In this document: piece by piece, positions 1 to 15,543 of the stretch
How positions within the stretch are numbered: the stretch's first letter is position 1
How the letters are laid out: each line of letters opens with the position of its first letter
Assembly (NCBI GenBank): GCA_965612865.1
Contig: CBFDTJ010000034.1
Coordinates: forward strand, 1 to 15,543
From: an uncultured bacterium
GTDB taxonomy: Bacteria > Caldisericota > Caldisericia > B22-G15
Direction of reading: 5' to 3'
Length of the DNA: 15,543 nt
Made by a program: the position numbers and the translations under genes
The notes under the pieces: generated by a model
What the model was told of the DNA's origin: nothing
The model's input: the letters and a program-made list of their open reading frames with translations, nothing else
Databases searched by the model: none

Positions 1-913
1 AGATAATATAAGTTTTCTGTGGATTCATATTCCAGTAGGCAGCAAAGGAATCAATTATGGTGTGTAGTATTATCATAAGTATAAGAGATTTCATTCCCCA
101 GCCTCTTTTCTCTGCATAGGAAAAGAGAGATGTGGTTCCTGTGTGGAAGAAGAACGCAAGAAGTCTTTCAATAAGACTAAGAATAGAGAGTGTACCTGCT
201 GATAAGGCTGATAAGAAGATAAACAGCGATTCTCCAAACCCGAATCCACTTCCAACATAGAGCGCATTAATAATTTTCTTTTTTCTCGAGAAGTAGTATT
301 TAGGAATTTCCTGAAATACAGCTGCTATAAAACCAATCCATAAAGATAGAACAACTGGGTTTTTGAAGCTTATCAGTTTCTGAACAAAGGGTTGAACAAT
401 AAGTATGATTAAAAGGATTCCAATGCCTATTATAAAATCTTTCCAGATGAACTTTCTTAGTATCAAAAATATTATTAAAAGACCTATTAATCCACCAATA
501 AGAGGATATGGGGTTGTAAACGAGAATGGAAATCTAAAATGTATGCCAGCAATTTTATTATCTTCCATGGTGATTATAAAAGTTATGGTTTTCTTTCCAA
601 GGATTGTTTCATAGTAATAGTTTCTATACTTCCCTTTCTCTTCTTCTTTTGTCAACTTATATGACTTCAGTTCTCCATATGATGATACAAGGTGATTCCT
701 TAATTTCTCAAAAGTATCCTTTTTAAAAGCTGTCTTCATTAAATCTGTTAAGTGTGACTCTATGAGTGAGTAATCATTAAGCTCAAACGCTTTAAAGAAT
801 TTTTCAGCCACTTCCTTTTGGTTTTCATTGATTACTCCATAAACTGAATGGGTGCTAAGTAGTAGTACAAAAAGCATAAAAGTAATAATGACAAATCTTA
901 ACCTTTTATTCAT
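1..913 (-). CDS. Signal peptide + soluble DUF3887-like domain fused to a YhfC/PrsW-like (glutamic-type) intramembrane protease domain; 3' end runs off the window
   Basis: Not in the ORF track. Manual translation from ATG at 913 (SD AGGAGG upstream) is open for 304 codons to the window edge: MNKRLRFVIITFMLFVLLLSTHSVYG...AEKFFKAFELNDYS...LVSSYGELKSY...EDNKIAGIHF, then several TM helices with motifs AAVFQEIPKY, GSGFGFGE, ERLLAFFFH and LHTIID, matching the motif pattern of the YhfC/PrsW/CPBP clan. Confidence 0.8.
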   Translation of the reverse strand, partial: MNKRLRFVIITFMLFVLLLSTHSVYGVINENQKEVAEKFFKAFELNDYSLIESHLTDLMKTAFKKDTFEKLRNHLVSSYGELKSYKLTKEEEKGKYRNYYYETILGKKTITFIITMEDNKIAGIHFRFPFSFTTPYPLIGGLIGLLIIFLILRKFIWKDFIIGIGILLIILIVQPFVQKLISFKNPVVLSLWIGFIAAVFQEIPKYYFSRKKKIINALYVGSGFGFGESLFIFLSALSAGTLSILSLIERLLAFFFHTGTTSLFSYAEKRGWGMKSLILMIILHTIIDSFAAYWNMNPQKTYII

Positions 914-943
914 ACCCACCTCCTAACAATCTAAACCAAATTA

Positions 944-972
944 ATGATAACCTGTTAAACCCCGTGTGTCAA
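944..972 (-). promoter_or_regulatory. sigma70-type promoter for the intramembrane protease gene
   Basis: Minus strand TTGACA (972-967), 17-nt spacer, TATCAT (949-944), about 30 nt upstream of the ATG at 913 and starting 2 nt after the livM stop. Confidence 0.7.
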
Positions 973-974
973 AA

Positions 975-1901
975 CTAAACTTTCTTCTTAAACAGATTGG
1001 GGAGGTAGATTAGACCCTGAGGGAGGAGCATCATAATTAAAATTATCATAATTCCATTAAATACATAGGGAGAGAAGGAGGTTCTTGCAAAAAACACGGG
1101 TATTATTGTGATAAATATTGCTCCAAGAATTGATCCAGGGACAGATCCAAGACCACCTATTACAATCATTGCAAGGAAGTTGAGAGATGCACCAAGACCA
1201 AAATCGTTAGGTGAGATGTAAGATACTGTGTGAGCGTAAAGGCTTCCAGAGATTCCTGCAAAGAAGGCTGAAATCACAAATACAAGGATTTTATAATAAG
1301 AGACATTTATTCCAAGTGAGCTTGCGAGAATCTCATTTTCTCTTAAGCTCTTAAGGGCTCTTCCCGTTTTTGAATTTATGAGGTTTATTAATAAAATAAC
1401 AGTAATTACAAGAAATATCAGGGATAAATAGTATTTGGAGAGGTCAGAAGAAAAACTCAATCCAAAGATTTCTGGTGATGGTATCTCTTTTATTCCATGA
1501 TATCCACCTGTAAATGAAAGGTAACCTATTATCTGAGTTATCGCAATTCCAAATGCCATTGTTACAAGGGCAAGGTAAAAGCCAGTAACTCTTAATGAAG
1601 GAAAGCCTATTAAAATTCCAAATAAACTCGAGACAATTCCAGCGATTATTAAACTTGGAAGGAATGGAAGGTTAAGTTTCATTACAAGTAGTGTTGAGGT
1701 GTATGCTCCTATTCCCATAAATGCAGCATGTCCAAGAGAGAGTTGCCCTGCTATTCCAAGTAAAAGATTAAATGATATAGCGCCAATGGAGTAGATAAGT
1801 GCAAGGGTTAAAAGATATATTATGAAACTCTTGTTAAGAAAAAATAGAGGAAAAAGAATGGCTATTATAAGAGAGACAATTACAAGATTTTTCCCTTTCA
1901 T
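975..1901 (-). CDS. livM: Liv/HAAT-family ABC transporter permease (LivM-like)
   Basis: 308 aa hydrophobic protein with GQLSLGHAAFMGIGAY, GFYLALVT and MIVIGGLGSVPGSILGA motifs. ATGA overlap with the upstream permease. Confidence 0.92.
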   Translation of the reverse strand: MKGKNLVIVSLIIAILFPLFFLNKSFIIYLLTLALIYSIGAISFNLLLGIAGQLSLGHAAFMGIGAYTSTLLVMKLNLPFLPSLIIAGIVSSLFGILIGFPSLRVTGFYLALVTMAFGIAITQIIGYLSFTGGYHGIKEIPSPEIFGLSFSSDLSKYYLSLIFLVITVILLINLINSKTGRALKSLRENEILASSLGINVSYYKILVFVISAFFAGISGSLYAHTVSYISPNDFGLGASLNFLAMIVIGGLGSVPGSILGAIFITIIPVFFARTSFSPYVFNGIMIILIMMLLPQGLIYLPNLFKKKV

Positions 1902-2770
1902 GCTCTCTTTACCTCCTTTCTGCCCATTAAACCGTGGGGACGTATAAGAAGTATGACTATTATTATGATGAGGGAGAGTGTAACCTTTAATTTTGTTGTT
2001 ATATAGGCTGCAATGAGATTCTCAAGCACTCCAAGAAGGAGACCACCAACAATTGCACCGGGAATGCTTGTAAAGCCACCAAGAACTGCTGCTGTAAAAG
2101 CCTTGATCTGAATTTCCTGCATCATATTTGAATGAAGATACAGGTTTGGTGCAACAAATACACCAGCAAGAAGACCAAGAATTGCAGAGAATCCCCATGT
2201 AAATGAAAGGACAGTTCCTATCCTTATGCCCATCAATCTCGAAGCCAATTCATCTTGAACAGTTGCTCTCATTGCTATTCCGTGAATTGAAAACTTTAAG
2301 AAGAGAAATAGACCAACTATAATTGCGATTGATATGATAAAAACAAAGAGACTGTATTTGTCAATTACAACACTACCTAAAAATATTGGTTCTCTATTCA
2401 CAAGGGATGGAAAAAGTTTCTCTTGAGTTCCCCATATAGTGGTAGCAAGTCCATTCAGGATCATTAAAAGCCCAAGGGTTATTATCATCATTCCTGCATG
2501 GGTTTTTTCTCTGACTGGTCTTAATAATCCCCTTTCAATGGCCATTCCAAATAGAAAGGCAAAGCCTATGCTTATAATTATCGATAGATATAGGGGAAGT
2601 TTTAAATATGTAAGAAGAGTATAGACTATAAATGTGGAGAACATTGCCATTTCTCCATGGGCAAAATTTACAACTCCAGAGGTTATAAAGACCAGCACAA
2701 TTCCAAGAGCTGCCAGAGCATATATACTACCCCAAAAAAGACCACTTACAACATTTTGAAGAAAAAACAT
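1898..2770 (-). CDS. livH: Liv/HAAT-family ABC transporter permease (LivH-like)
   Basis: 290 aa with GSIYALAALG, VVNFAHGEMAM, KAFTAAVLGG and RPHGLMG motifs typical of LivH. Confidence 0.92.
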   Translation of the reverse strand: MFFLQNVVSGLFWGSIYALAALGIVLVFITSGVVNFAHGEMAMFSTFIVYTLLTYLKLPLYLSIIISIGFAFLFGMAIERGLLRPVREKTHAGMMIITLGLLMILNGLATTIWGTQEKLFPSLVNREPIFLGSVVIDKYSLFVFIISIAIIVGLFLFLKFSIHGIAMRATVQDELASRLMGIRIGTVLSFTWGFSAILGLLAGVFVAPNLYLHSNMMQEIQIKAFTAAVLGGFTSIPGAIVGGLLLGVLENLIAAYITTKLKVTLSLIIIIVILLIRPHGLMGRKEVKRA

Positions 2771-2772
2771 TC

Positions 2773-3477
2773 TTACCTCCCAAGATAATATTTCCTGACT
2801 TCTTTTGTTTTTAAAAGTTCTTCACTTTTTCCCTCAAAGGCTATTTTTCCAACCTCAAGTATGTATGAGTAGTTGCTTATTTTAAGTGCCTGATAGGCAT
2901 TCTGTTCCACAAGGAGCACAGATACACCTGATTTATTTATTTCCTTTATGATACTGAATATTTCCTGTACCAGTATTGGTGCAAGACCCAGGGATGGTTC
3001 ATCCAAAAGAAGAATTTTTGGATTACTCATAAGGGCTCTTCCAATTGCAAGCATCTGTTGTTCTCCACCTGAGAGTGTACCTGCAAGCTGGTTTTCCCTC
3101 TCCTTCAGAACAGGAAAGTATGAGTAGATTTTGTCTAAATCTTTTAGACTCCCCTTTTTATCCTTTCTTATGTATGTTCCAAGAATTAAATTTTCCTTTA
3201 CAGTAAGCTCTGGAAATATCCTTCTTCCCTCTGGTACCATAGAGATTCCAAGTCTTACAATATCTTCTGGAGCATGTCCTGTTATATCTCTATCAGAAAA
3301 TAACACTTTCCCCTTATCAGGTTTTAGAAATCCACAGATTGTCTTGAGTGTTGTTGTTTTTCCGGCACCGTTTGGACCAAGCAGTGAAACTATGCTTCCT
3401 TCTTCTATCTCAAGGGATACACCTGATAACGCCTTAACAGGACCATAACTTACATAAAGGTTATCAACTTTTAACAT
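2773..3477 (-). CDS. livF: ABC ATP-binding subunit (LivF-like)
   Basis: Walker A GPNGAGKT, VPEGRRIF, signature LSGGEQQ, Walker B LLLDEPSLGLAP, LVEQN. Confidence 0.95.
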   Translation of the reverse strand: MLKVDNLYVSYGPVKALSGVSLEIEEGSIVSLLGPNGAGKTTTLKTICGFLKPDKGKVLFSDRDITGHAPEDIVRLGISMVPEGRRIFPELTVKENLILGTYIRKDKKGSLKDLDKIYSYFPVLKERENQLAGTLSGGEQQMLAIGRALMSNPKILLLDEPSLGLAPILVQEIFSIIKEINKSGVSVLLVEQNAYQALKISNYSYILEVGKIAFEGKSEELLKTKEVRKYYLGR

Positions 3478-4289: not shown

Positions 4290-5864
4290 CTAATCAGCAA
4301 TGGAAATCCAATCTGAAACTTTAGTCCACATGCCGTCCTTTACCTGCATGAAGTACATAGACTTCTTTCCAGAACGATCATTTGGAGCATATGTTATATC
4401 CTTTGCAAGCATTCCTGACCAGTGCTTGAATGTTTCAAGTGCCCACACAAGCCTCTCTCTTGTTGGAGGAGAACCAGCTCTTCTTAACCCTTCAACAAAA
4501 ACTTCTCCAGCAATCCAACCTGCCATGGCATAGGCGCTTGGAATTTCTCCTGGATGATACTTATCCCATAATTCATAGAACTTTTTAACTCCTGGATCCT
4601 TCAAGTCTGCAAAGACCCATGCTGATACATATGTTCCCTCTGCAGCTTCTTTTCCAGCAAGGGTTATAAGCAGTGGATCTGCATTGGGGTATGTTGTTAC
4701 AAACTTTGTCTTAAGTCCCAGTGAGTAAGCTGTTTTAAGGATTATTGATGCAGGTTTAAGGAGAGCATACATTATAACAACATCAGGTTTTACCTGTTTT
4801 AATTTTAGTACATACGATGTTAAATCAACTTCAGTTGGACTGAAACCAACTTCTATTACAGGCTTTTTGCCATACTTTTCAAGACCCTTCTTTACACCAT
4901 TCAATCCCTCTGTTCCAATATCATCTGTTTCATAAATTACTGCAATTTTATCCGCCTTTAACTCCTCAACAATATACTTTGCCATTATCTGACCTTCATT
5001 TGTAAAGTTTGGCTGAACTGCAAAGATGTAGTTCTTTGGTGGATATGCAAGTTTACTTGATCCACTTCCCTGATATACAAATGGAACCTTGTTTTCATTA
5101 AGATAATCCATCACTGCAAGACATCCTGGAGTTCCAAGTCCACCAACTATTGCAAAAACCTTATCCACCTCAACCATTCTCTTTACAGCTGCAATGGTCT
5201 TTGCTGGATTGAATTGGTCATCCTCAACAATGAGTTTAATCTTTCTTCCATATACTCCACCATTGTCATTTATGTAGTTGTAGTAGGTTTTATAACCCTT
5301 TACAAACTCAATTCCAATGGGAGCAACAGGGCCTGAAAGTGCTGCAAAGGCTCCAATTTTTATCTCCTTATCTGTAACACCTGGAATTGTTCTTGGAATA
5401 AGCTTTGATTGTATGTAAACCTGTCTTCCAAAAGCATCATAGAATACAAAGTATCCTGCAGTTTCTGAGATAAAGCGAAGTGGAACCATTGTTCTTCCAG
5501 GAGGGACAATTTTTGGAGCAACATCAATTACTATCTTTTTACCGTTTACATATACTTCCTTCTTCCCGATGAAGAGTTCAATGGTCTTCCCCTCTATCTT
5601 AACAGTTACTTTTCTTAACACTCCGTCCCAACCTACTTCACCACCAAGTGCTTCAATGACAAATCTGATTGGTACAAGAGTCCTCCCATTTTCTATGAAT
5701 GGAGCAACATCCATCTCCCTTTCAACACCGTTAACCATATACTTCTTCTCTCCAATTTTCATAACAATGGAGATCTCTGCTCCTGCTCTTACTGAGCCAA
5801 TAAGAGCAAAGGAACCCAGTAGAGCAAGAGATACCACTAAAATTACTGCCAAAAGCTTTTTCAT
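4290..5864 (-). CDS. ABC substrate-binding protein (PBP type 1, Liv-like) with N-terminal copper amine oxidase-like (stalk) domain
   Basis: Sec signal peptide without lipobox Cys. aa ~32-152 carry two DVAP-x-I..GRT(L/M)VP(I/L)RF repeats typical of Cu_amine_oxidN1/stalk domains. From aa ~160 PGVTDKEIKIG...LSGP...YINDNGGVYGRKI...EDDQFNP is a Liv-type type-1 binding fold. Confidence 0.9.
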   Translation of the reverse strand: MKKLLAVILVVSLALLGSFALIGSVRAGAEISIVMKIGEKKYMVNGVEREMDVAPFIENGRTLVPIRFVIEALGGEVGWDGVLRKVTVKIEGKTIELFIGKKEVYVNGKKIVIDVAPKIVPPGRTMVPLRFISETAGYFVFYDAFGRQVYIQSKLIPRTIPGVTDKEIKIGAFAALSGPVAPIGIEFVKGYKTYYNYINDNGGVYGRKIKLIVEDDQFNPAKTIAAVKRMVEVDKVFAIVGGLGTPGCLAVMDYLNENKVPFVYQGSGSSKLAYPPKNYIFAVQPNFTNEGQIMAKYIVEELKADKIAVIYETDDIGTEGLNGVKKGLEKYGKKPVIEVGFSPTEVDLTSYVLKLKQVKPDVVIMYALLKPASIILKTAYSLGLKTKFVTTYPNADPLLITLAGKEAAEGTYVSAWVFADLKDPGVKKFYELWDKYHPGEIPSAYAMAGWIAGEVFVEGLRRAGSPPTRERLVWALETFKHWSGMLAKDITYAPNDRSGKKSMYFMQVKDGMWTKVSDWISIAD

Positions 5865-7055: not shown

Positions 7056-8354
7056 CTAAACAATATTTAGTTTTTTTGCTTCAAACAGAAGTTTCTCCCT
7101 AAACTTTGGATGAGCAATCTTTATAAGGGATAGAGCCCTATCCCTTACACTTTTACCCCTCAGATGAGCCACTCCATACTCTGTTACAACATAATCAACA
7201 TCCTGTCTCGGAACAGTTATGTAGCTTCCCTCTGGAAGGGCTGGAACAATTGTTGATATGGTTTCATTCTTCACCGTTGAACGAAGAGCAATTATTCCCT
7301 TTCCTCCCTTTGATAAAACTGCCCCTCTGTGTGTATCAAGTTGACCACCTGTCCCTGTGTATTGTTTCACACCAAAGGATTCTGAACACACCTGTCCTGA
7401 GAGATCAACCATTAAGGATGTATTTATGCTTACCATCTTTTCATTCTTTGAAACTATGTATGGATCATTTACAACAGAGCCCCTTAAGAGTTCTATTGAG
7501 ATGTTGTTATCTATAAAATCATAGAGTTTTTTTGTTCCCATGGCGAAAGTTCCAACCATTTTTCCCTTCCATACACTTTTTCTCTGATTTGTAATTACAC
7601 CTTTGTAAAACAGGTCAACCATTCCATCTGTTAGCATCTCAGTGTGTATTCCTAAATCCCTTTTATCTACCAAGAATTTTGTAATTGCGTTTGGTATTCC
7701 CCCGATTCCAAGTTGAAGAGTTGAACCATCCTCAATAAGTTCTGAAATGTTTTCACCTATTCTCTTTTCAACTTCTGTTGGTTCAATGGATGGAAATTCT
7801 AAAAGTGGTGAGTTGTACTCTACAAAATAATCAACATACTCTATGTTCAGCTGTGTATCACCAAATGTCCTTGGAAGATTCTCATTTATCTCTATTATCA
7901 CTGTCTTTGCCTTCTCAATCATCTCCTTCTCGTACACCAAAGATAGAGACAGAGATAAAAATCCCTTTTCGTCAACCGGTGTTCCAGTGCCGATAAAGAC
8001 ATCTATCTTCTCACTATCTATTTTGTCAGTTCCTGCAGCATGAAGGTTGTTTGGTATGTATGTTATTTTTTCCTTTTTGTATAAATCTCTCTCAAAACTT
8101 CCAAGATACCAGCTTTCCATTTTAAATGGTGCATTTTCTTTGTCAACAAACCTGTAAAATTCGTACTCCTTCAGTAAAAGACAGGTTATAAGTTTTACAT
8201 TCTCGACTTTGTCCTTGATGAGGTGAAGATTTGATAGAAGTCCTGGCGGTTGCGAGGGTCCAAGAGCAACAACAACAGTATCATTTGATTTGATTTTACT
8301 CAATGCCTCTTCAATGGAGACCAATTTTCTTTTGTAAGCTTCTTCTACATTCAT
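7056..8354 (-). CDS. Acetyl-CoA hydrolase/transferase family protein (4-hydroxybutyrate CoA-transferase-like)
   Basis: LPRTFGD, DGSTLQLGIGGIPNA, HTEMLTDG (catalytic Glu), TGGQLD, DYVVTEYGVAHLRGKS, IAHPKFRE. Confidence 0.92.
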   Translation of the reverse strand: MNVEEAYKRKLVSIEEALSKIKSNDTVVVALGPSQPPGLLSNLHLIKDKVENVKLITCLLLKEYEFYRFVDKENAPFKMESWYLGSFERDLYKKEKITYIPNNLHAAGTDKIDSEKIDVFIGTGTPVDEKGFLSLSLSLVYEKEMIEKAKTVIIEINENLPRTFGDTQLNIEYVDYFVEYNSPLLEFPSIEPTEVEKRIGENISELIEDGSTLQLGIGGIPNAITKFLVDKRDLGIHTEMLTDGMVDLFYKGVITNQRKSVWKGKMVGTFAMGTKKLYDFIDNNISIELLRGSVVNDPYIVSKNEKMVSINTSLMVDLSGQVCSESFGVKQYTGTGGQLDTHRGAVLSKGGKGIIALRSTVKNETISTIVPALPEGSYITVPRQDVDYVVTEYGVAHLRGKSVRDRALSLIKIAHPKFREKLLFEAKKLNIV

Positions 8355-9559
8355 ACCTCCTCCTTTAAAACACCCTTCAATCCATGCATAATAAAATTAA
8401 GCGTGGTCAATGTTACCTTCTTACTCATTTCCTTACTCTCTTCAAGAACAAACCATTTCATTCCAACACAGTGACCTATCCCCATAAGAGATAAAGCCAG
8501 AGCCTCTGGATCAGTTTTTATAATCTCTCCAAACTTCATTCCTATTCCAAGCCCTTTTTTGTATGGAGACAGGAGTCTTTTGTAGTACCATGCGCCAATT
8601 TCTCTATCAACAAATTCTGCTTCTCTCACTATTCTGTAGTCATTACCTATGTTTCTAAAGAGGTGGAAGAACGCCTGAAAACCAGCATTTTCAATCTCCC
8701 TCCTGTCATCAAAGTTCTTTGTGTATTCCCACGACCTTTTTCTCAATAAGTAGTTTATGTACTTTACAAGCTCCCATAATATTTCCTTCTTACTGTTAAA
8801 ATAAAGATAGATTGTGCCAAGTCCTATTCTGGATTCTCTTGCTATATCCATCATTTGGGTTTCCGAGTATCCTCTTTCCCCAAAAAGTTTTTCTGCTGAT
8901 GAAAGGATTTTTCTTTTTGTTTCCTCTCCCTTGGTGAGTATTTCGTCGCTCTTTTCCTCAACCTCTCTTTCTTTAACGATGTATGGTTTAAAATCTCCTT
9001 TTCTATCAATCCCCCTTTCTATCAACTTAAAAGCTGCTTCAATCTTCTTATTCTCTATCTCTTTATTGTCCCATATGAGATAATTTATGACTATGAAGTA
9101 AACACTGCCAAGGATTGAGAAAGATAAAGTCTCAAGATCTATATTCTTTTTGACTTTGTCTTTAAGCACATCTTCTATCTCATTTGTGGTTTTTTTGTAG
9201 AAATCCCTTACAAGATCTTTATTTACAAATTCCACTTCCCGAAAGATGTCATAGAGAGTGGTGTTTTCGCTTATGTAATTGATGTATGAGAGAAGTATGC
9301 TCTTTATCAATTTCAGTGCATTTTTTCCTCTTTTTTCCTTTTCTATTCTTTCAACTAAACCATCCTCAAATCTTTTAACAAGGGCAAAGTATATCTCTTC
9401 TTTGTTTTTAAAGTATCTGTAAATGCTTGCATTGGAAAGTCCTATTCTTTCAGCAATTTTTTTAATAGACGCATTCTTAAAACCGTTTTCTTTGAATGTA
9501 ACGATTGCGCTTTCCAGTATTTTTTCCTTTGTTTTTTTACCCCTTAAGGTTTTCTCCAT
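8351..9559 (-). CDS. Tandem (double) TetR/AcrR family transcriptional regulator
   Basis: 402 aa with two TetR HTHs (KKIAERIGLSNASIYRYFKNKEEI and MDIARESRIGLGTIYLYFNSKKEI) and duplicated C-domain motifs (REVEFV / REAEFV). Confidence 0.9.
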   Translation of the reverse strand: MEKTLRGKKTKEKILESAIVTFKENGFKNASIKKIAERIGLSNASIYRYFKNKEEIYFALVKRFEDGLVERIEKEKRGKNALKLIKSILLSYINYISENTTLYDIFREVEFVNKDLVRDFYKKTTNEIEDVLKDKVKKNIDLETLSFSILGSVYFIVINYLIWDNKEIENKKIEAAFKLIERGIDRKGDFKPYIVKEREVEEKSDEILTKGEETKRKILSSAEKLFGERGYSETQMMDIARESRIGLGTIYLYFNSKKEILWELVKYINYLLRKRSWEYTKNFDDRREIENAGFQAFFHLFRNIGNDYRIVREAEFVDREIGAWYYKRLLSPYKKGLGIGMKFGEIIKTDPEALALSLMGIGHCVGMKWFVLEESKEMSKKVTLTTLNFIMHGLKGVLKEEV

Positions 9560-11320: not shown

Positions 11321-12385
11321 TTAGCCATTTTCCTTTATGAAATTTACAAGAATTTCGTTGAACTCTTTTCTCTTCTCAATATGGGGTGAATGAGCGGTAT
11401 CTTTTATAACCACTTCGAAGTACTTTCCACCTTTCTCTTTGTATTTTTCAAATACGTACTTTGTCTGAGCAATCATTGGTTGAGGTGGAAAAATGCTTTC
11501 CCCTGGATAGTTTGGAACAAAACCCATTTTTCCAAGATATCCAATGTCAAAAAAGGAGTTGTCAGATACAATCTTATCTTCTGAACCTCTCACCCATAGA
11601 ATTGGTGGTTTTGGGTTTACATCTACAATTCCACTTGTGTTAAAGTATTTTGGAGATATTGCATTTATCGGTCCAAACTTACCTGGGGCATAGAAGGGCC
11701 AATTCTTAGAAGGGACTGAATCACCTGGATACTTATCTGGTCCAATTTTTTCAAGAAGTGAAGCAGTTAAATAGTCTTCTTCTCTTTCTGGTCTGAATGG
11801 TGGTTTAAAGTAAAATTTGTTAATTACATTTCTTGGAGAATTTATACTTGATTCACTTCTATCCCTGTTTTTAATTCTTTCTACAAACTCTGGATTTACT
11901 CCACCTGCTCCTGAACCAGCAAAATCATCATAGCATGGTGTCCCCTTCTCATCCTTTGTCCCACTAAATCCAAATGGTGATACAGGAGCTATAACTGTTA
12001 GTGTTTTTACCTTTTCTGGATGATCAAGTAAATACTGCATGACAACTCCGCCTCCCACCGACCATCCCACAAGGTGAACTTTATCCAAATTAAGAGCATT
12101 TAATAACGAATCTAAGTCATCCGACCAATCTTTTGCACCTTTTGTGGCATCTATAATCTTATCTTCTGTTAAACCGTATCCCCTTAAGTCTGGTGCAATT
12201 CCAAAAAACTCTTCTGATAGATCAACAATATTTTCTTCAAAGTATGTTCCAGAAGTGAAATTTCCGTGAATGAAAATGATGGGTTCTCCCTTTCTCTTTT
12301 CAGAGAAGTGAACATTCATCTCTATGCGGTCTGTTTTTACCATTTTCTCCTCTATCCCCTCTAAAACATTTGGTTTCTCTTCCAT
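11321..12385 (-). CDS. Alpha/beta-fold serine hydrolase (esterase / intracellular PHA-depolymerase-like)
   Basis: HGNFTS oxyanion loop, PDLRGYG, lipase box GWSVG (Ser109), RGSED (Asp270), AHSPH (His332). No signal peptide; SD AGGAGGT at 12397-12391. Confidence 0.88.
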   Translation of the reverse strand: MEEKPNVLEGIEEKMVKTDRIEMNVHFSEKRKGEPIIFIHGNFTSGTYFEENIVDLSEEFFGIAPDLRGYGLTEDKIIDATKGAKDWSDDLDSLLNALNLDKVHLVGWSVGGGVVMQYLLDHPEKVKTLTVIAPVSPFGFSGTKDEKGTPCYDDFAGSGAGGVNPEFVERIKNRDRSESSINSPRNVINKFYFKPPFRPEREEDYLTASLLEKIGPDKYPGDSVPSKNWPFYAPGKFGPINAISPKYFNTSGIVDVNPKPPILWVRGSEDKIVSDNSFFDIGYLGKMGFVPNYPGESIFPPQPMIAQTKYVFEKYKEKGGKYFEVVIKDTAHSPHIEKRKEFNEILVNFIKENG

Positions 12386-12455
12386 CCTTCACCTCCTTAA
12401 AATTTGTTCTTAAGCCTAAAGACCCCTTTTAGGAGCGTCATTCTTCCCCATTATT

Positions 12456-12497
12456 ATTATACCTGAATCAGGTAAAACATTATACCTGAATCAGTTG
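12456..12497. promoter_or_regulatory. Two tandem palindromic operators (probable TetR-binding sites)
   Basis: Perfect palindrome TACCTGA-A-TCAGGTA at 12460-12474 and imperfect copy TACCTGAATCAGTTG at 12483-12497. Exact 16-bp direct repeat ATTATACCTGAATCAG at 12456-12471 and 12479-12494 (23-bp period). Confidence 0.8.
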
Positions 12498-12499
12498 TA

Positions 12500-12527
12500 A
12501 TTTTATACTAAATTTTTAATTTGTCAA
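12500..12527 (-). promoter_or_regulatory. sigma70-type promoter of the hydrolase-to-livM operon
   Basis: Minus strand TTGACA (12527-12522), 16-nt spacer, TAAAAT (12505-12500). The predicted start site (~12493) falls inside the upstream operator. Confidence 0.7.
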
Positions 12528-12561
12528 GAGAGTGTAAAAATACTTAACCTGTGGGGTTTTT

Positions 12562-13668
12562 TTAATCTTCCTCTCGCTCCATAACTCCCCACTCAGCAAG
12601 AAACAAAGGTTTGTTTGGAAAAAGGGTAGTCAATTCTTTGTATATAGGTTCCATTTTCTCCTCGAATTTTACCCAGGGTTCATCATGTGTTTGGGCTCCA
12701 TATAAGCTAAATCCTATCCAATCTACGTATTCATCTCCTGGATAATAATTCTCAATTTTGTTCCACTCTTCTTGAGGATACGATTCATCATTTGGCTGGA
12801 AATACCAGATAGCATTTTTTACATTTTTTTCTCTGAATAAATTTACAATGTGACGAAAAGCATCCACGAATCTTTCCGGTCCATCTGGTTTATCGGGATC
12901 TCCATAGGTTCTCTTTTTTCCTCCACCCTGAAATACTCCAGACCAGGGAAACCAGTCTCCATTCATTTCAACACCAAACGTGACCATTACAGGTTTACCA
13001 TAATCTTTTATAGTATCTGCCCACCTAGAAATAAAAGAGTCAAAGTCTCCATTTATGATTCTTTGAAGAGAGTACCTTGGCTGGTATTCAGGCTCCCAGT
13101 ATGGCTCTCCCCACGGCATAAATCTAACAAGCGGTATTGCTCCATACTTTGAGATTTCACCAAGATTCTTTCTTGATACGTAATTTCTTCCAAAAAAGAC
13201 AGAGAATGGAACAAAGGCTACTGATTTTCCTGAGAGTTTTTCAAAATTTATTAGTTCTTCCCCTTTTACAGAATCTTCATACTCTCCCCATCCTGGAAAA
13301 ACTCCTGTATAACAACCATTCTCAGGTGTAACTATTGTGTTGTCCTGAACAACAAGACCTTCCTTTCCTATGAAGTAGGAAGATTTAATTCCCCTTCTGT
13401 AAGCTTTCAAAGCTTCATCTGATGAGTTTATCCTTAAATCAGACCAGCTTCCATCATCGTTTTCCCATTTCTCGTGGTACACTATGGCAATTTTTACCTT
13501 CGTATATTTAATTTGAAACAAAGTTAATGCATCTTGATACCAGGCTGCCTTTGAATCCTTCACATATACAAGGAGGGGTTCCTTTGTAAAGGTGCAGCCA
13601 TTAGATATTATTATGATATTTGTAATCAATATAATTAATAATATTAGAAATATATTTCTTTTAATCAT
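12562..13668 (-). CDS. Secreted or membrane-anchored GH26-like glycoside hydrolase, apparently circularly permuted
   Basis: N-terminal hydrophobic signal ending in NGC (possible lipoprotein). GH26 motifs EMNGDWFPW (acid/base Glu234), YYPGDEYVDWIG and KPLFLAEWG (nucleophile Glu359). Start overlaps the upstream stop. Confidence 0.85.
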   Translation of the reverse strand: MIKRNIFLILLIILITNIIIISNGCTFTKEPLLVYVKDSKAAWYQDALTLFQIKYTKVKIAIVYHEKWENDDGSWSDLRINSSDEALKAYRRGIKSSYFIGKEGLVVQDNTIVTPENGCYTGVFPGWGEYEDSVKGEELINFEKLSGKSVAFVPFSVFFGRNYVSRKNLGEISKYGAIPLVRFMPWGEPYWEPEYQPRYSLQRIINGDFDSFISRWADTIKDYGKPVMVTFGVEMNGDWFPWSGVFQGGGKKRTYGDPDKPDGPERFVDAFRHIVNLFREKNVKNAIWYFQPNDESYPQEEWNKIENYYPGDEYVDWIGFSLYGAQTHDEPWVKFEEKMEPIYKELTTLFPNKPLFLAEWGVMEREED

Positions 13669-13987
13669 CTTTCTTCTTGGTTAATATAATTATAACTCCT
13701 GAGGCAATGATTAACAGACTTATTAAAGTTGGAATCAGGGAAAAATTAAAGAAAAACATCATACAACCACCAAAGATTATTAAACTTATACCTCCAATAA
13801 ATTCCCATTTCCATGAGATAAGAACCAATACAATAAATACAATCCAGGGTAAGGCATTGGGACTGTTCTTTATAATACCTTCAATTCCCCCTCCATACCT
13901 TTCTGTCCCGGATAAAATCGCAAAGAGAGTTATTAAAATTCCAAAGATTAATAAGATGTATCTTAATACATTTCTAACCCTTTCCAT
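13661..13987 (-). CDS. Small hypothetical membrane protein (about 4 TM helices, 108 aa)
   Basis: Hydrophobic ORF MERVRNVLRYILLIFGILITLFAILSG...NSPNALPW...WKWEFIGG. ATG at 13987 preferred over the track's TTG at 14023, which coincides with a -35 box. Confidence 0.75.
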   Translation of the reverse strand: MERVRNVLRYILLIFGILITLFAILSGTERYGGGIEGIIKNSPNALPWIVFIVLVLISWKWEFIGGISLIIFGGCMMFFFNFSLIPTLISLLIIASGVIIILTKKKDD

Positions 13988-14035: not shown

Positions 14036-14857
14036 TTATCTGATTTCAATTACTTTCCCTACTCCATACTCGATAAAATTTCCCTTATACTCCTTTCTGA
14101 AAGCTTCTCCTATTAAATCACCTGTGCAATGGGATGGTGCAACCTTTTCTACTTGCAATTTTCTAAATTCTTTAATGCAAGATACGGGAGGACGGTGAAA
14201 TCCTCCTAAAACTAAATAAATATCTTTTTTCATCAATTCCTTAGCTCTCTTTACAATATTTACAATTCCGGGATGGGCACAGCCTGTAATAACTACCAAT
14301 CCCTTTTTTGAATCAATAATCAAAGATTGCTCTTTTGGAGGTCCATAGAGTTCTCCGGTTGTATAAACAAAATCAGAAATTTTTCCTGGAGTTGAAATCT
14401 CTACAAATTCGGCTCCCTTTTTGGTTATCATATTTTTAATAGATTTAGGAAAGGAACTCGGAATGAAGACCGTAACGTCACTGTTTCTCTCTAAAAAACC
14501 TTCCAATCCTCCTAAATGATCACCGTGAATATGAGAGATAACTACTTTCTTGATTGAGGCAGGGTTGATACCTAATTTTTCCATATTAAAAAGCAAAATT
14601 TCTGAGTTTCCTCCAGTATCAAAAAGTATTAGCTCCTTAGGGGTTTTTATTATAGTAGCAAAGCCCCAGGCAGTTTTCAGTTCTGGGTCTATTTGGTAGT
14701 TGTCATATACGGAAATCAAAGTTATTTCAGATTTTTCTTCTTTTTCTAATTCGATAGAAACTTCTGGCGGGGTTACTTTTCCTCTTTGAACTAAAAACCA
14801 AATTCCTGCCCCTATCAAAACCAGGATTCCTATTAAGATTAAGATTTTGAGATTCAT
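14036..14857 (-). CDS. MBL-fold metallo-hydrolase (COG1237 / DHPS-like MBL group) with N-terminal membrane anchor
   Basis: YDN, WGF, LFDTG, SHIHGDHLGG, TGCAHPG, GGFH and PSHCTG motifs. ATG at 14857 has GAGGT 9 nt upstream (the track uses TTG at 14866). Confidence 0.88.
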   Translation of the reverse strand: MNLKILILIGILVLIGAGIWFLVQRGKVTPPEVSIELEKEEKSEITLISVYDNYQIDPELKTAWGFATIIKTPKELILFDTGGNSEILLFNMEKLGINPASIKKVVISHIHGDHLGGLEGFLERNSDVTVFIPSSFPKSIKNMITKKGAEFVEISTPGKISDFVYTTGELYGPPKEQSLIIDSKKGLVVITGCAHPGIVNIVKRAKELMKKDIYLVLGGFHRPPVSCIKEFRKLQVEKVAPSHCTGDLIGEAFRKEYKGNFIEYGVGKVIEIR

Positions 14858-14862
14858 ATCAA

Positions 14863-15313
14863 TCAAACCTCAATTATTTTCCCTGCTCCACCTTCAACAT
14901 ATGTGTAAGCCTCCTATAATACCATAAACTTTACCGAATTGAGATGCTGTCTTAATGATATGTTCCATTCTTGGATGCGAGCATCCAGGTATTATCACAA
15001 TACCTTTTTCTGTCTCAACACAAAGAGATTGTTCTATTCCATCAAGTTCACCTGTAGAGTAGATCCCCTTATAAAGCTTGGTAGGCTTTTCACTTCAATA
15101 AATTCTCTTGCATTCATTGCTTCAGAAAAATAAGAGGGAATCCAGAGTTTTACTTGGTTATTCAGGCGAAGAAAAGATGAAAGACCTCCTACGTGATCTC
15201 CGTGGAGATGAGAGATAAAAATATCTTCAATTTCTTTTGGATTGATTTTAAGTTTTTGCATATTTGAAAGCAAAACTAAACGCAGTGTTGTCATAAATAA
15301 TGGTAACTTTCAT
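14863..15313 (-). pseudogene. Decayed paralogous MBL-fold metallo-hydrolase gene
   Basis: SD AAGGAGG + ATG at 15313 gives [12 protein letters not shown]; frame change at ~15278 to VLLSNMQKL...[10 protein letters not shown]...EVK; 1-nt frameshift at A-run 15087-15090 to [22 protein letters not shown]...PGCSHP...GGLH; frame change at ~14902 to YVEGGAGKIIEV-stop (14865-14863). Confidence 0.85.
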
Positions 15314-15475: not shown

Positions 15476-15543
15476 CTGTCTCTTATACACATCTCCGAGC
15501 CCACGAGACTAGGCATGATCTCGTATGCCGTCTTCTGCTTGAA
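15476..15543 (+). other. Illumina Nextera adapter read-through (sequencing artefact)
   Basis: CTGTCTCTTATACACATCT (Tn5 mosaic end, 15476-15494) + CCGAGCCCACGAGAC (15495-15509) + 8-nt index TAGGCATG (15510-15517, matches N706) + ATCTCGTATGCCGTCTTCTGCTTG (P7, 15518-15541) + AA. Confidence 0.99.

Follow-up and report, generated by a model that had tools for sequence, protein, structure and literature searches.

The gene at positions 12562–13668 (minus strand) of the window, as we call the whole 15,543-nt stretch of DNA analysed here, encodes a glycoside hydrolase of the GH26 family whose chain is circularly permuted. The explanation that best accounts for the data as a whole is that its 368-residue product is a secreted, probably lipid-anchored, retaining GH26 enzyme, in which the C-terminal end of the (β/α)8 barrel has been relocated in front of the barrel core, and that this order originated by permutation-by-duplication; we give this reading a probability of about 0.85.

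The window gene encodes a GH26 barrel with both catalytic glutamates

GH26 enzymes are TIM barrels of clan GH-A, retaining, and act by double displacement. A previous interpretation of this DNA from its letters alone (the sequence-only reading) had described an intact minus-strand frame over 12562–13668, with a chain that ends shortly after the nucleophile motif. ORF and translation agree on both points: the frame yields 368 residues, and its stop codon (12562–12564, minus strand) lies nine residues past E359 (...LAE359WGVMEREED*). The Pfam model PF02156 matches the protein with 49.3 bits (cut-off 20.2; E = 5.9e-13) over residues 203–328 only, which spans about one third of the model. Where two GH26 HMM matches in swapped order had been expected, Pfam returned this single stretch, and the NCBIfam profiles gave nothing meaningful for this protein.

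Solved relatives were more informative. A phmmer search of the PDB retrieved ten chains containing CtLic26A, the GH26 β-1,3-1,4-glucanase module of Clostridium thermocellum endoglucanase H (PDB entries 2bv9, 2bvd, 2cip, 2cit, 2v3g and 2vi0), at E-values from 8e-24 to 7e-21, with other GH26 chains weaker. CtLic26A, of the same family and fold, ranks first as a match to the window protein both in sequence (E = 2e-22) and in structure. E234 (codon 12967–12969, minus strand; motif TFGVE on β4) aligns with the glutamate of ...LHEANGDWYPW in CtLic26A, and E359 (codon 12592–12594, minus strand; motif FLAEWG on β7) with that of ...IIAEFAS. We take E234 and E359 to be the acid/base and the nucleophile, respectively, in line with the GH26 literature, and their CtLic26A counterparts to have the same roles. 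Both had been said to be kept, and both are indeed invariant across 47 aligned permuted homologues. In the AlphaFold model, E234 lies just after strand 227–231 and E359 within strand 355–361, so that sequence similarity, (β/α)8 fold and glutamates at the ends of strands 4 and 7 all place the protein in GH26. The residues before the acid/base glutamate are Gly-Val in the window subfamily and Leu-His in CtLic26A. The absence of this histidine, singled out earlier as a feature of the window protein, is real but not peculiar to it: the histidine is missing from all 79 motif-matching proteins among 121 close homologues, permuted and canonical alike, and its absence is a trait of the subfamily.

The C-terminal barrel elements precede the core

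We then mapped the chain onto canonical GH26 proteins. It begins with a hydrophobic signal or anchor helix (residues 1–25; 13594–13668, minus strand) that ends at Cys25 of a lipobox-like ...SNGC motif, delimited from the model and the alignment, and a short flexible tether (residues 26–37; 13558–13593, minus strand; pLDDT <50 at residues 27–33) leads from Cys25 to the domain. The relocated segment (residues 38–101; 13366–13557, minus strand), defined by alignment with CtLic26A and with 68 canonical homologues, corresponds to the C-terminal end of canonical GH26 proteins. It is followed by a linker (residues 102–114, KEGLVVQDNTIVT; 13327–13365, minus strand) bridging the former C- and N-termini, which starts like canonical tails (K...) and finishes like canonical heads (...KILP), and by the barrel core with strands β1 to β7 (residues 115–368; 12565–13326, minus strand), delimited by VIA-align and by DSSP on the model. 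The assignment of residues 39–101 to nucleotides 13554–13366 of the minus strand in the sequence-only reading was correct, as was their resemblance to GH26 C-termini. With phmmer, residues 38–94 align with positions 230–280 of the CtLic26A chain (i-E = 0.003, or 2.9e-5 against a fusion construct) and residues 191–362 with positions 69–225 (i-E = 1.6e-17), hence in swapped order, and the 64-residue segment matches the C-termini of close canonical relatives with E-values down to 1e-28. The motif KxxW...W/YxHE...RINSSxEALxAYR is present in both CtLic26A and the window protein, and the 47-sequence alignment conserves K40, W43, E66, D77, L78, R79, S82 and S83 within the segment.

The AlphaFold model (pLDDT 93.3, pTM 0.87) has eight strands with alternating helices, and within the relocated segment pLDDT is ≥94 from residue 41 onward. 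The segment is predicted to comprise helix α7 (39–53), strand β8 (58–64), a hairpin (67–77) and helix α8 (84–94). DSSP on this model gives the order α7, β8, α8, β1 (119–124) ... β7 (355–361), the permuted order that structure prediction had been expected to return: α7-β8-α8-linker-β1...β7 in the window protein, versus β1...β7-α7-β8-α8 in CtLic26A. The best Foldseek matches to the model are CtLic26A entries (E = 4e-16). VIA-align superposes residues 117–368 on residues 7–230 of 2cip_A with Z = 22.2 and an rmsd of 2.0 Å over 219 aligned residues at 28–29% identity, and its best 35 rows are all GH26 barrels (Z 15.4–22.2). Note that the GH26 chains 7xs3, 7xjr and 6ueh align from model residue 49–54 on (Z 16.4–16.7); on the predicted structure, this is the barrel turned by one unit with strand 58–64 within the sheet, where it would sit between β7 and β1. 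As judged from the alignments, the N-terminal part of the window protein corresponds to the C-terminal part of CtLic26A and of the 68 canonical homologues, and vice versa, and the resulting connectivity differs from that of every solved GH26 member. The window protein further differs from CtLic26A by extra loops (e.g. 243–261) and by its putative lipoprotein-type N-terminus. Overall, the PDB alignments, the model, the order in homologues and an independent contig (see below for the last two) support the view that this GH26 (β/α)8 barrel has been circularly permuted in nature.

Secretion, anchoring and candidate substrates

The N-terminal helix spans residues 3–22 of the model, is hydrophobic and leads into ...SNGC25. 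Cysteine is the majority residue at this column of the 47-sequence alignment, and a crude pattern scan found a lipobox-like cysteine in 35 of the 47 permuted proteins whose N-terminal sequence was long enough. The strict lipobox consensus is L-[AS]-[GA]-C, from which the SNGC of the window protein departs as a non-canonical variant. From its sequence, the protein is probably a lipid-anchored lipoprotein. Since the barrel and both catalytic glutamates are intact, ordinary GH26 action by double displacement on a β-glycan chain is expected, and the protein should, by its sequence, be a retaining endo-β-glycanase.

Fusions and neighbours of homologues give hints to the substrate. Among long homologues, 12 of 22 are fused to a GH114 domain (PF03537). 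Glycan-synthesis or exopolysaccharide (EPS)-type neighbours occur at 10 of 29 loci, three of these ten carrying a gene for a ~1100-residue CE4 deacetylase + GT2 synthase directly upstream, and the neighbours of homologues include CE4+GT2, DUF2334, GT1/GT2 and GH39 genes. The GH114 fusions and the deacetylase-synthase genes suggest a GH26 clade acting on microbial exopolysaccharide. The window gene itself has no carbohydrate-related neighbour, so this idea draws only on other loci. It is nevertheless our best guess, a tentative one with the odds against it, that the substrate would be a β-linked microbial exopolysaccharide and not plant mannan.

The enzyme may instead be an ordinary degrader of plant or algal β-glycans (lichenan, mixed-linkage glucan or mannan) that serves nutrition, a reading that we regard as a serious possibility short of even odds. 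The closest solved structure is a lichenase, the characterised GH26 activities known to us are all on mannan, β-1,3-xylan or lichenan, and no EPS genes lie near the window gene. This reading fits less well with a subfamily that lacks the histidine preceding the acid/base glutamate of CtLic26A, with the partial Pfam match, with the GH114 fusions and the glycan-synthesis neighbours of homologues, and with a small host genome (1.42 Mb) in which the window gene is the sole GH26.

Both orders coexist in one subfamily and changed more than once

A search for homologues of the same order had been proposed, and it was productive. The permuted order is found in 51 of 119 close homologues when the window's own two are excluded, that is, in 53 of 121 proteins, with the other 68 canonical; core and segment are in one chain in all 121. 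Among canonical relatives P0013 comes closest, with core and segment identities of 70% and 71%, respectively. Canonical members (such as P0013, P0018 and P0021) share the motifs and secretion signals of the window protein and carry a loop of ~6 residues (WPxKGD) past the nucleophile strand, where the permuted chain stops. At the level of genome loci, 11 of 80 have the permuted order, in Bacteroidota, Chlorobiota and Epsilonproteobacteria. Only 1 of 40 relatives has a homologue of the window gene, and that homologue is canonical.

The distribution of the two orders was analysed on two trees. A tree built from the core alone (116 rows) requires nine order changes, of which its starred branches force at least two, and on this tree a single split, put to the AU test, gives ΔlnL = 145 and p-AU = 0.002. 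For the second tree, rows with long branches or odd composition were removed, leaving a core+segment set of 87 rows and 316 columns; it needs eight order changes with at least three forced, and a single split is again rejected (AU test, ΔlnL = 231, p = 2e-6). Both AU tests are based on ‘quick’ tree searches. The linkers carry a local signature in each large clade: in the group of the window protein, they begin with KEGL... and the canonical tails of that group begin with K..., and in the other large group, linkers read ..xxF..KLLP, with canonical tails in ..xxF and canonical heads in ..KLLP.

These data indicate that the chain order changed more than once within this GH26 subfamily, most likely with two or three origins of the permutation or more; if permuted and canonical genes have recombined, the count of events may be too high. 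A single ancient permutation, scattered afterwards by horizontal transfer, by recombination or gene conversion involving canonical paralogues, or in appearance only by tree error, would account for the cut point being identical in all permuted clades (end at ~EWGVxE(R), segment directly after the signal peptide), and it gains from the fact that strongly supported branches force just two to three changes, the other five to seven falling on weak branches of trees from ‘quick’ searches. We consider it improbable nonetheless, given the two AU rejections, the resemblance of linkers to local canonical tails and heads, and four independent tandem duplications (see below), which mean that the raw material recurs.

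Tandem duplication is the most likely route

Permutation-by-duplication and fission-fusion are given as the two standard models of circular permutation in PMC3320104. Under the first, an in-frame tandem duplication would give a core-seg-core-seg chain, and the seg-core order of the permuted proteins would remain once the leading core and the trailing segment were lost. An exhaustive search of representatives, the only search in which tandem fusions came up, found three in-frame core-seg-core-seg fusions (P0161, P0211 and P0248) and one protein with two cores (P0236), the two halves within each of these four being 54–65% identical. The window protein (P0001) aligns over residues 37–366 with residues 291–611 of P0161 in one collinear HSP (E = 4e-40) that runs across the junction between the first segment and the second core, as expected under permutation-by-duplication. 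Note that the tandem fusions share just 29–35% identity with the window protein and need not be direct ancestors of any permuted clade. Tandem arrays of separate GH26 genes occur as well, three at locus L075 and two at L082.

The word-indexed search for longer proteins contained no tandem fusion, its 22 matches each having a single canonical GH26 domain. Half-truncated seg-core-seg intermediates were absent from the 121 close homologues, the part of the family (6201 representatives in all) that was covered for a second segment or core, and a segment HMM run over 118 head and tail pieces found no remnant segment. Two candidates were set aside: the 57-residue C-terminal extension of P0005, considered as a decayed second segment, was supported neither by BLAST nor by the segment HMM, and the head of P0114, the sole segment-HMM match, is the protein's own first helix trimmed by BLAST.

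The other standard model, in which the barrel came apart into two genes, one for the core and a small one for α7-β8-α8, that were later re-fused in reverse order, could draw on the 24 of 80 genome loci that show a core without a segment detectable with the window's segment as probe. These ‘core only’ loci are, however, the most divergent ones, where a 64-residue probe should fail. A search for shorter proteins returned ten matches, all pieces of full-length-type proteins, with no stand-alone segment among them, core and segment share one chain in every close homologue, and the in-frame tandem fusions that exist are those predicted by duplication, which together make a split and re-fusion very improbable. 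We infer that the origin was most likely permutation-by-duplication.

The gene is a clean presence/absence block

A mis-joined assembly at the segment junctions had been named among the findings that would overturn the permutation, but an independent metagenome contig crosses both of them: in run X4, a 1246-nt contig spans 12502–13747 with one difference and no joints inside the gene. The window contig is of metagenome type and ends in ~68 bases of sequencing adapter, as a chimeric contig or a binning artefact might, yet the chance that the swapped order is such an artefact is negligible, given that this run, not flagged as a possible source, carries the same arrangement, that the order recurs in 51 other proteins of diverse origin, and that the gene has an unbroken frame, conserved catalytic residues and natural variants that are mostly synonymous (12 of 17, with five non-synonymous).

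The gene lies in a block of 1141 nt (12540–13680, unstranded) delimited by contig alignments, which is replaced by 43 nt in a same-genus genome. There, contig positions 1–441 (G001:C19, locus L085) correspond to window positions 14121–13681 and positions 485–3196 to 12539–9826. Gene-absent contigs joining about 12532/12539 to 13681/13697 were also found in runs X2, X4 and X5. The permuted GH26 gene is thus a clean gene-sized indel, missing from close relatives. Its base composition shows no contrast with the flanks, and its last codons briefly match the 43-nt filler, over a stretch whose length is insufficient to distinguish loss from gain. The neighbours in the window encode an alpha/beta hydrolase, FabH-like, SDR, TetR, CoA-transferase and thiolase proteins, a branched-chain amino-acid ABC transporter, a DUF7670 protein and an MBL-fold protein, among which we found no functional link to the GH26 gene.

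Discussion

Natural circular permutations of the TIM barrel are, to our knowledge, rare and usually reflect one old event that divides whole families. Among glycoside hydrolases, the GH70 glucansucrases (relative to GH13) and the GH16 lichenase of Fibrobacter succinogenes are naturally permuted. GH13_19 MalS is a further natural permutation of a glycoside-hydrolase fold, according to PMC10223318. In these three cases catalysis is kept despite the permutation, as is predicted for GH26, but they concern other families and other cut sites; in GH26, unlike in these, permuted and canonical proteins of one subfamily are up to 70% identical, several changes of order have taken place and tandem fusions of the intermediate type survive. 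No published description of a permuted GH26 was found in the literature searched, which did not extend to subscription journals, and among the papers listed, those naming GH26 together with GH114 were CAZyme surveys.

What the permuted order might bring to the cell can be framed in terms of geometry. Counted from the lipobox cysteine, the median tether is 9 residues in permuted proteins versus 24 in canonical ones. In the permuted form, the N- and C-termini would no longer lie at the bottom of the barrel but on its catalytic face, and a lipid anchor ~9 residues away, against ~24 in the canonical form, would hold the active site to the surface of the cell itself; there, it could trim nascent exopolysaccharide and not digest food glycans. 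It is conceivable, but in our view unlikely, that the subfamily represents a repeated and possibly reversible permutation fed by recurrent tandem duplications, with the permuted form selected for this anchoring geometry.

Permuted GH26 proteins are only partly caught by the Pfam model, and annotation that depends on domain order, as well as sequential structure aligners, would misread them. Here, a single subfamily contains canonical and permuted forms that are up to 70% identical, with the order switched repeatedly at the loop directly after the nucleophile, and the stepwise permutation-by-duplication route can be tested directly on natural sequences. The subfamily offers matched natural pairs for studying the effects of permutation on folding, stability and membrane-anchoring geometry, and a GH26 clade acting on exopolysaccharide, if true, would broaden the known scope of the family.

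A natural permutation of the GH26 barrel

The sequence-only reading took the reverse-strand ORF at 12562–13668 for a natural circular permutation of a GH26 barrel, in which the helix α7–strand β8–helix α8 unit (residues ~39–101, the segment) precedes strands β1–β7 (from residue ~115 on, the core). The permutation is upheld by a swapped-order alignment to PDB chains, the order of elements in a structure model, 51 of 119 other homologues and an independent spanning contig. The frame is intact and encodes 368 residues, ending in KPLFLAE359WGVMEREED, nine residues past Glu359, and residues 39–101 correspond to nt 13554–13366. The two GH26 matches expected in swapped order were obtained with phmmer against all PDB chains: query 191–362 aligns with residues 69–225 of CtLic26A, the lichenase module of Clostridium thermocellum endoglucanase H (i-E 1.6e-17), and query 38–94 with residues 230–280 (i-E 0.003 for 2bv9, 2.9e-5 for a fusion construct). 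They were not obtained with the Pfam GH26 HMM (PF02156), which matches residues 203–328 only (49.3 bits, cut-off 20.2); NCBIfam profiles gave no useful match to the protein. The proposed likeness of the segment motif to GH26 C-termini extends residue by residue along the C-terminal end of CtLic26A. Across an alignment (A1) of 47 homologues of the same permuted order, both catalytic Glu, as claimed, and many barrel residues are invariant, and K40, W43, E66, D77, L78, R79, S82 and S83 are conserved inside the relocated segment.

A structure model built from A1 (mean pLDDT 93.3, pTM 0.87) begins with a signal or anchor helix (residues 3–22) and a low-confidence tether (pLDDT < 50 at 27–33), followed by a helix (39–53), a strand (58–64), a small hairpin (67–77) and a helix (84–94), and then by seven more strand–helix units (strands 119–124, 152–158, 178–184, 227–231, 286–290, 317–323 and 355–361). 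E234 lies just past the fourth of these later strands and E359 inside the last. The top Foldseek ranks are CtLic26A entries (E 4e-16), and VIA-align superposes model residues 117–368 on residues 7–230 of 2cip_A (Z 22.2, rmsd 2.0 Å, 219 residues aligned); the core therefore corresponds to the canonical barrel from β1 to β7. This sequential aligner leaves over precisely the stretch of CtLic26A that query 38–94 matches in sequence. A few GH26 chains (7xs3, 7xjr and 6ueh) align from model residue 49–54 on (Z 16.4–16.7), which in the model would represent a barrel turned by one unit with strand 58–64 within the sheet. The prediction thus agrees with residues 39–101 being the last barrel elements, as helix, strand and helix precede β1–β7, although we infer the placement of strand 58–64 and its exact neighbours in the sheet.

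Misassembly can be dismissed, as among contigs from four public runs compared with window 12300–13900, a 1246-nt contig of metagenome run X4, which carries no flag as a possible source of the window, spans 12502–13747 with one difference and no joint within the gene. Seventeen natural variants are listed within the gene, 12 synonymous and 5 nonsynonymous.

Spread and recurrence of the permuted order

Homologues with the same order were sought among the query and the best 120 of 531 homology matches: 53 of these 121 proteins are segment-first (two of them the window protein itself and the representative of its cluster) and 68 segment-last. Within this set the closest canonical relative, P0013, has a core identity of 70% and a segment identity of 71%, and permuted relatives extend down to ~40% identity. 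With one genome per species, 80 loci comprised 11 permuted and 45 canonical ones; the remaining 24 had no match to the window's segment probe at E ≤ 1e-3. The permuted loci belong to Bacteroidales, Flavobacteriales, Chlorobiota and one Epsilonproteobacteria MAG, to which the source names of protein matches add Cloacimonadota, Deferrimicrobium and a Promethearchaeia archaeon.

On an unrooted tree of the core alone (quick maximum-likelihood search, 116 rows once the duplicate of the window protein and four fragments were removed), nine order changes are required, at least two of them forced by strongly supported branches, and a single permuted/canonical split is rejected (AU test, ΔlnL 145.5, p 0.0021). 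The core and segment columns together (87 rows, 316 columns, quick search, without seven fragmentary or partly matching rows, four on long branches, five of odd composition and all near-copies above 85% identity) give an unrooted tree requiring eight changes, at least three forced, and also reject the single split (ΔlnL 230.7, p 2e-6). Recombination of permuted with canonical genes could have raised the number of changes on either tree. All other GH26 structures have the canonical order. Circular permutation is known from other glycoside-hydrolase families; searches of the literature outside subscription journals turned up no account of a permuted GH26.

Junctions and route of origin

In all permuted proteins examined the segment begins directly after the signal peptide, a linker of 10–17 residues joins it to the core, and the chain stops 0–7 residues from the motif EWGVxE(R), except in P0005, which has a 57-residue extension. 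In canonical relatives a short loop, typically WPxKGD, separates the nucleophile strand from the segment, and the mature N-terminus reads ...KILP or ...KLLP immediately ahead of the core. The permuted linker, judged from its letters, reads like the start of a canonical tail joined to the end of a canonical head. The linker of the window's group is KEGLxxQxxxIxP, and adjacent canonical tails start with K; the other large group has QTTAQFDNNKLLP or TSxxRYSxDSMKVLP, and its canonical relatives have tails such as TTPRF, SKANF and KQKPIF and heads ending in KLLP.

Searched exhaustively with HMMER, 1.84 billion representative proteins yielded 6201 relatives at E ≤ 1e-3 (240 at E ≤ 1e-30). Segment and core HMMs mapped on 136 previously unseen proteins among the best 150 relatives gave 101 core–segment, 18 core-only, 6 segment–core, 6 core–core–segment, 3 core–segment–core–segment (P0161, P0211 and P0248) and 2 core–core arrangements. 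An insertion interrupts a single core in five of the core–core–segment proteins; the remaining one, P0236, contains two complete cores. The halves of each tandem protein share 54–65% identity with each other versus 29.5–43% with the window core, and the tandem proteins are therefore separate duplications. By BLASTP, residues 37–366 of the window protein align with P0161 291–611 in a single collinear stretch across the junction of segment 1 and core 2 (E 4e-40), which is the signature of the permutation-by-duplication model described in PMC3320104. A half-truncated intermediate was not found among close homologues by BLAST or by the segment HMM on head and tail pieces. Origin by fission and fusion is spoken against, since a search for shorter homologous proteins found no stand-alone segment gene. 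Separate GH26 genes also stand in tandem, two at L082 and three consecutive at L075 (2054–5867, a Pseudomonadales MAG), the latter on the same strand, with a multi-pass membrane region fused N-terminally to the first.

Genomic setting of the gene

The window makes up contig C34 of an 87.6%-complete assembly of 1.42 Mb, in which this gene is the sole GH26. Among 40 relatives searched, one, of the same class, has a homologue, of canonical order in a 657-aa frame; none was found in two same-genus and six same-family genomes. In the same-genus genome G001, locus L085 (contig C19) matches window 14121–13681 at 1–441 (88%) and 12539–9826 at 485–3196 (92%); 43 nt (442–484) therefore stand in place of window 12540–13680 (1141 nt), a clean indel the size of the gene that separates the two genomes. 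Contigs of runs X2, X4 and X5 carry the same gene-less joint, a hint only because the matching sides are short (30–39 letters); forms with and without the gene seem to coexist within single metagenomes. The distribution is best matched by gain through transfer, with loss as a possible alternative.

The genes around it offer no functional clue. Upstream, the gene of a DUF7670 membrane protein shares 8 nt with the beginning of the GH26 frame, and the C-terminal end of its product differs in G001. Elsewhere on the reverse strand, 8351–9559 encodes a 402-aa doubled TetR regulator (two TetR_N stretches) flanked by fatty-acid/CoA genes (SDR, FabH-like, CoA-transferase, thiolase), and 4290–5864 a branched-chain amino-acid ABC transporter substrate-binding protein with PF07833 (copper-amine-oxidase-N1-like) N-terminal to Peripla_BP_6. 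An 86-aa ORF with an HxHxDH metallo-β-lactamase motif (15034–15294, reverse strand), adjoining a full MBL-fold gene (14036–14866), may represent a shortened paralogue or a gene interrupted where the contig stops. The last ~68 bases (15476–15543) read CTGTCTCTTATACACATCT... and then index and flow-cell sequence, presumably Illumina Nextera adapter read-through; this contamination, of no biological meaning, yields spurious ORFs with the tell-tale peptide ...SYTHLRAHET....

Possible substrate and orientation at the membrane

From the invariant Glu pair, the barrel residues and the conserved segment residues, the window protein would be expected to be an active retaining β-glycanase. CtLic26A has His before the acid/base Glu, whereas none of the 79 motif-matching proteins (of 121) does; the commonest pair there is G-V (46/79). 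A GH114 domain (PF03537) is fused in 12 of 22 long homologues (P0123, P0124, P0127, P0129–P0132, P0135, P0136 and P0140–P0142), and a separate GH114 gene (L013:5064–6065) lies just downstream at one permuted locus. The literature matches for this pairing were CAZyme surveys, and none of the papers found takes it up. GH114 is known for endo-α-1,4-galactosaminidases acting on galactosaminogalactan. Glycan-related neighbours occur at 10 of 29 loci examined: in three, a ~1100-aa polysaccharide deacetylase (CE4) and GT2 chitin-synthase/PgaC-like protein lies directly upstream of a canonical GH26 gene on the same strand (L009:639–4025, L016:576–3890, L022:505–3843), and the rest have CE4, DUF2334, GT1/GT2, GH114, GH39 or DegT genes. 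The three may form a compact synthase–deacetylase–hydrolase exopolysaccharide module; their hosts are Verrucomicrobia and Thermodesulfobacteriota/Desulfobulbus MAGs, and the L016 protein adds a GH18-like N-terminal part. Fusions and neighbours point to microbial exopolysaccharide as a possible substrate, a context of other loci that is absent at the window.

The canonical termini of a (β/α)8 barrel lie at its bottom, and it follows from this established topology that the new termini (α7 start, β7 end) lie at the catalytic face. A crude lipobox scan, restricted to proteins whose N-terminal sequence was long enough, finds a candidate anchoring Cys in 35 of 47 permuted versus 22 of 65 canonical ones, with a median tether to the domain of 9 residues (3–13) versus 24 (12–37). 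With termini at the catalytic face and a short tether, permuted enzymes may thus, as a speculation, have their active site held near the membrane.
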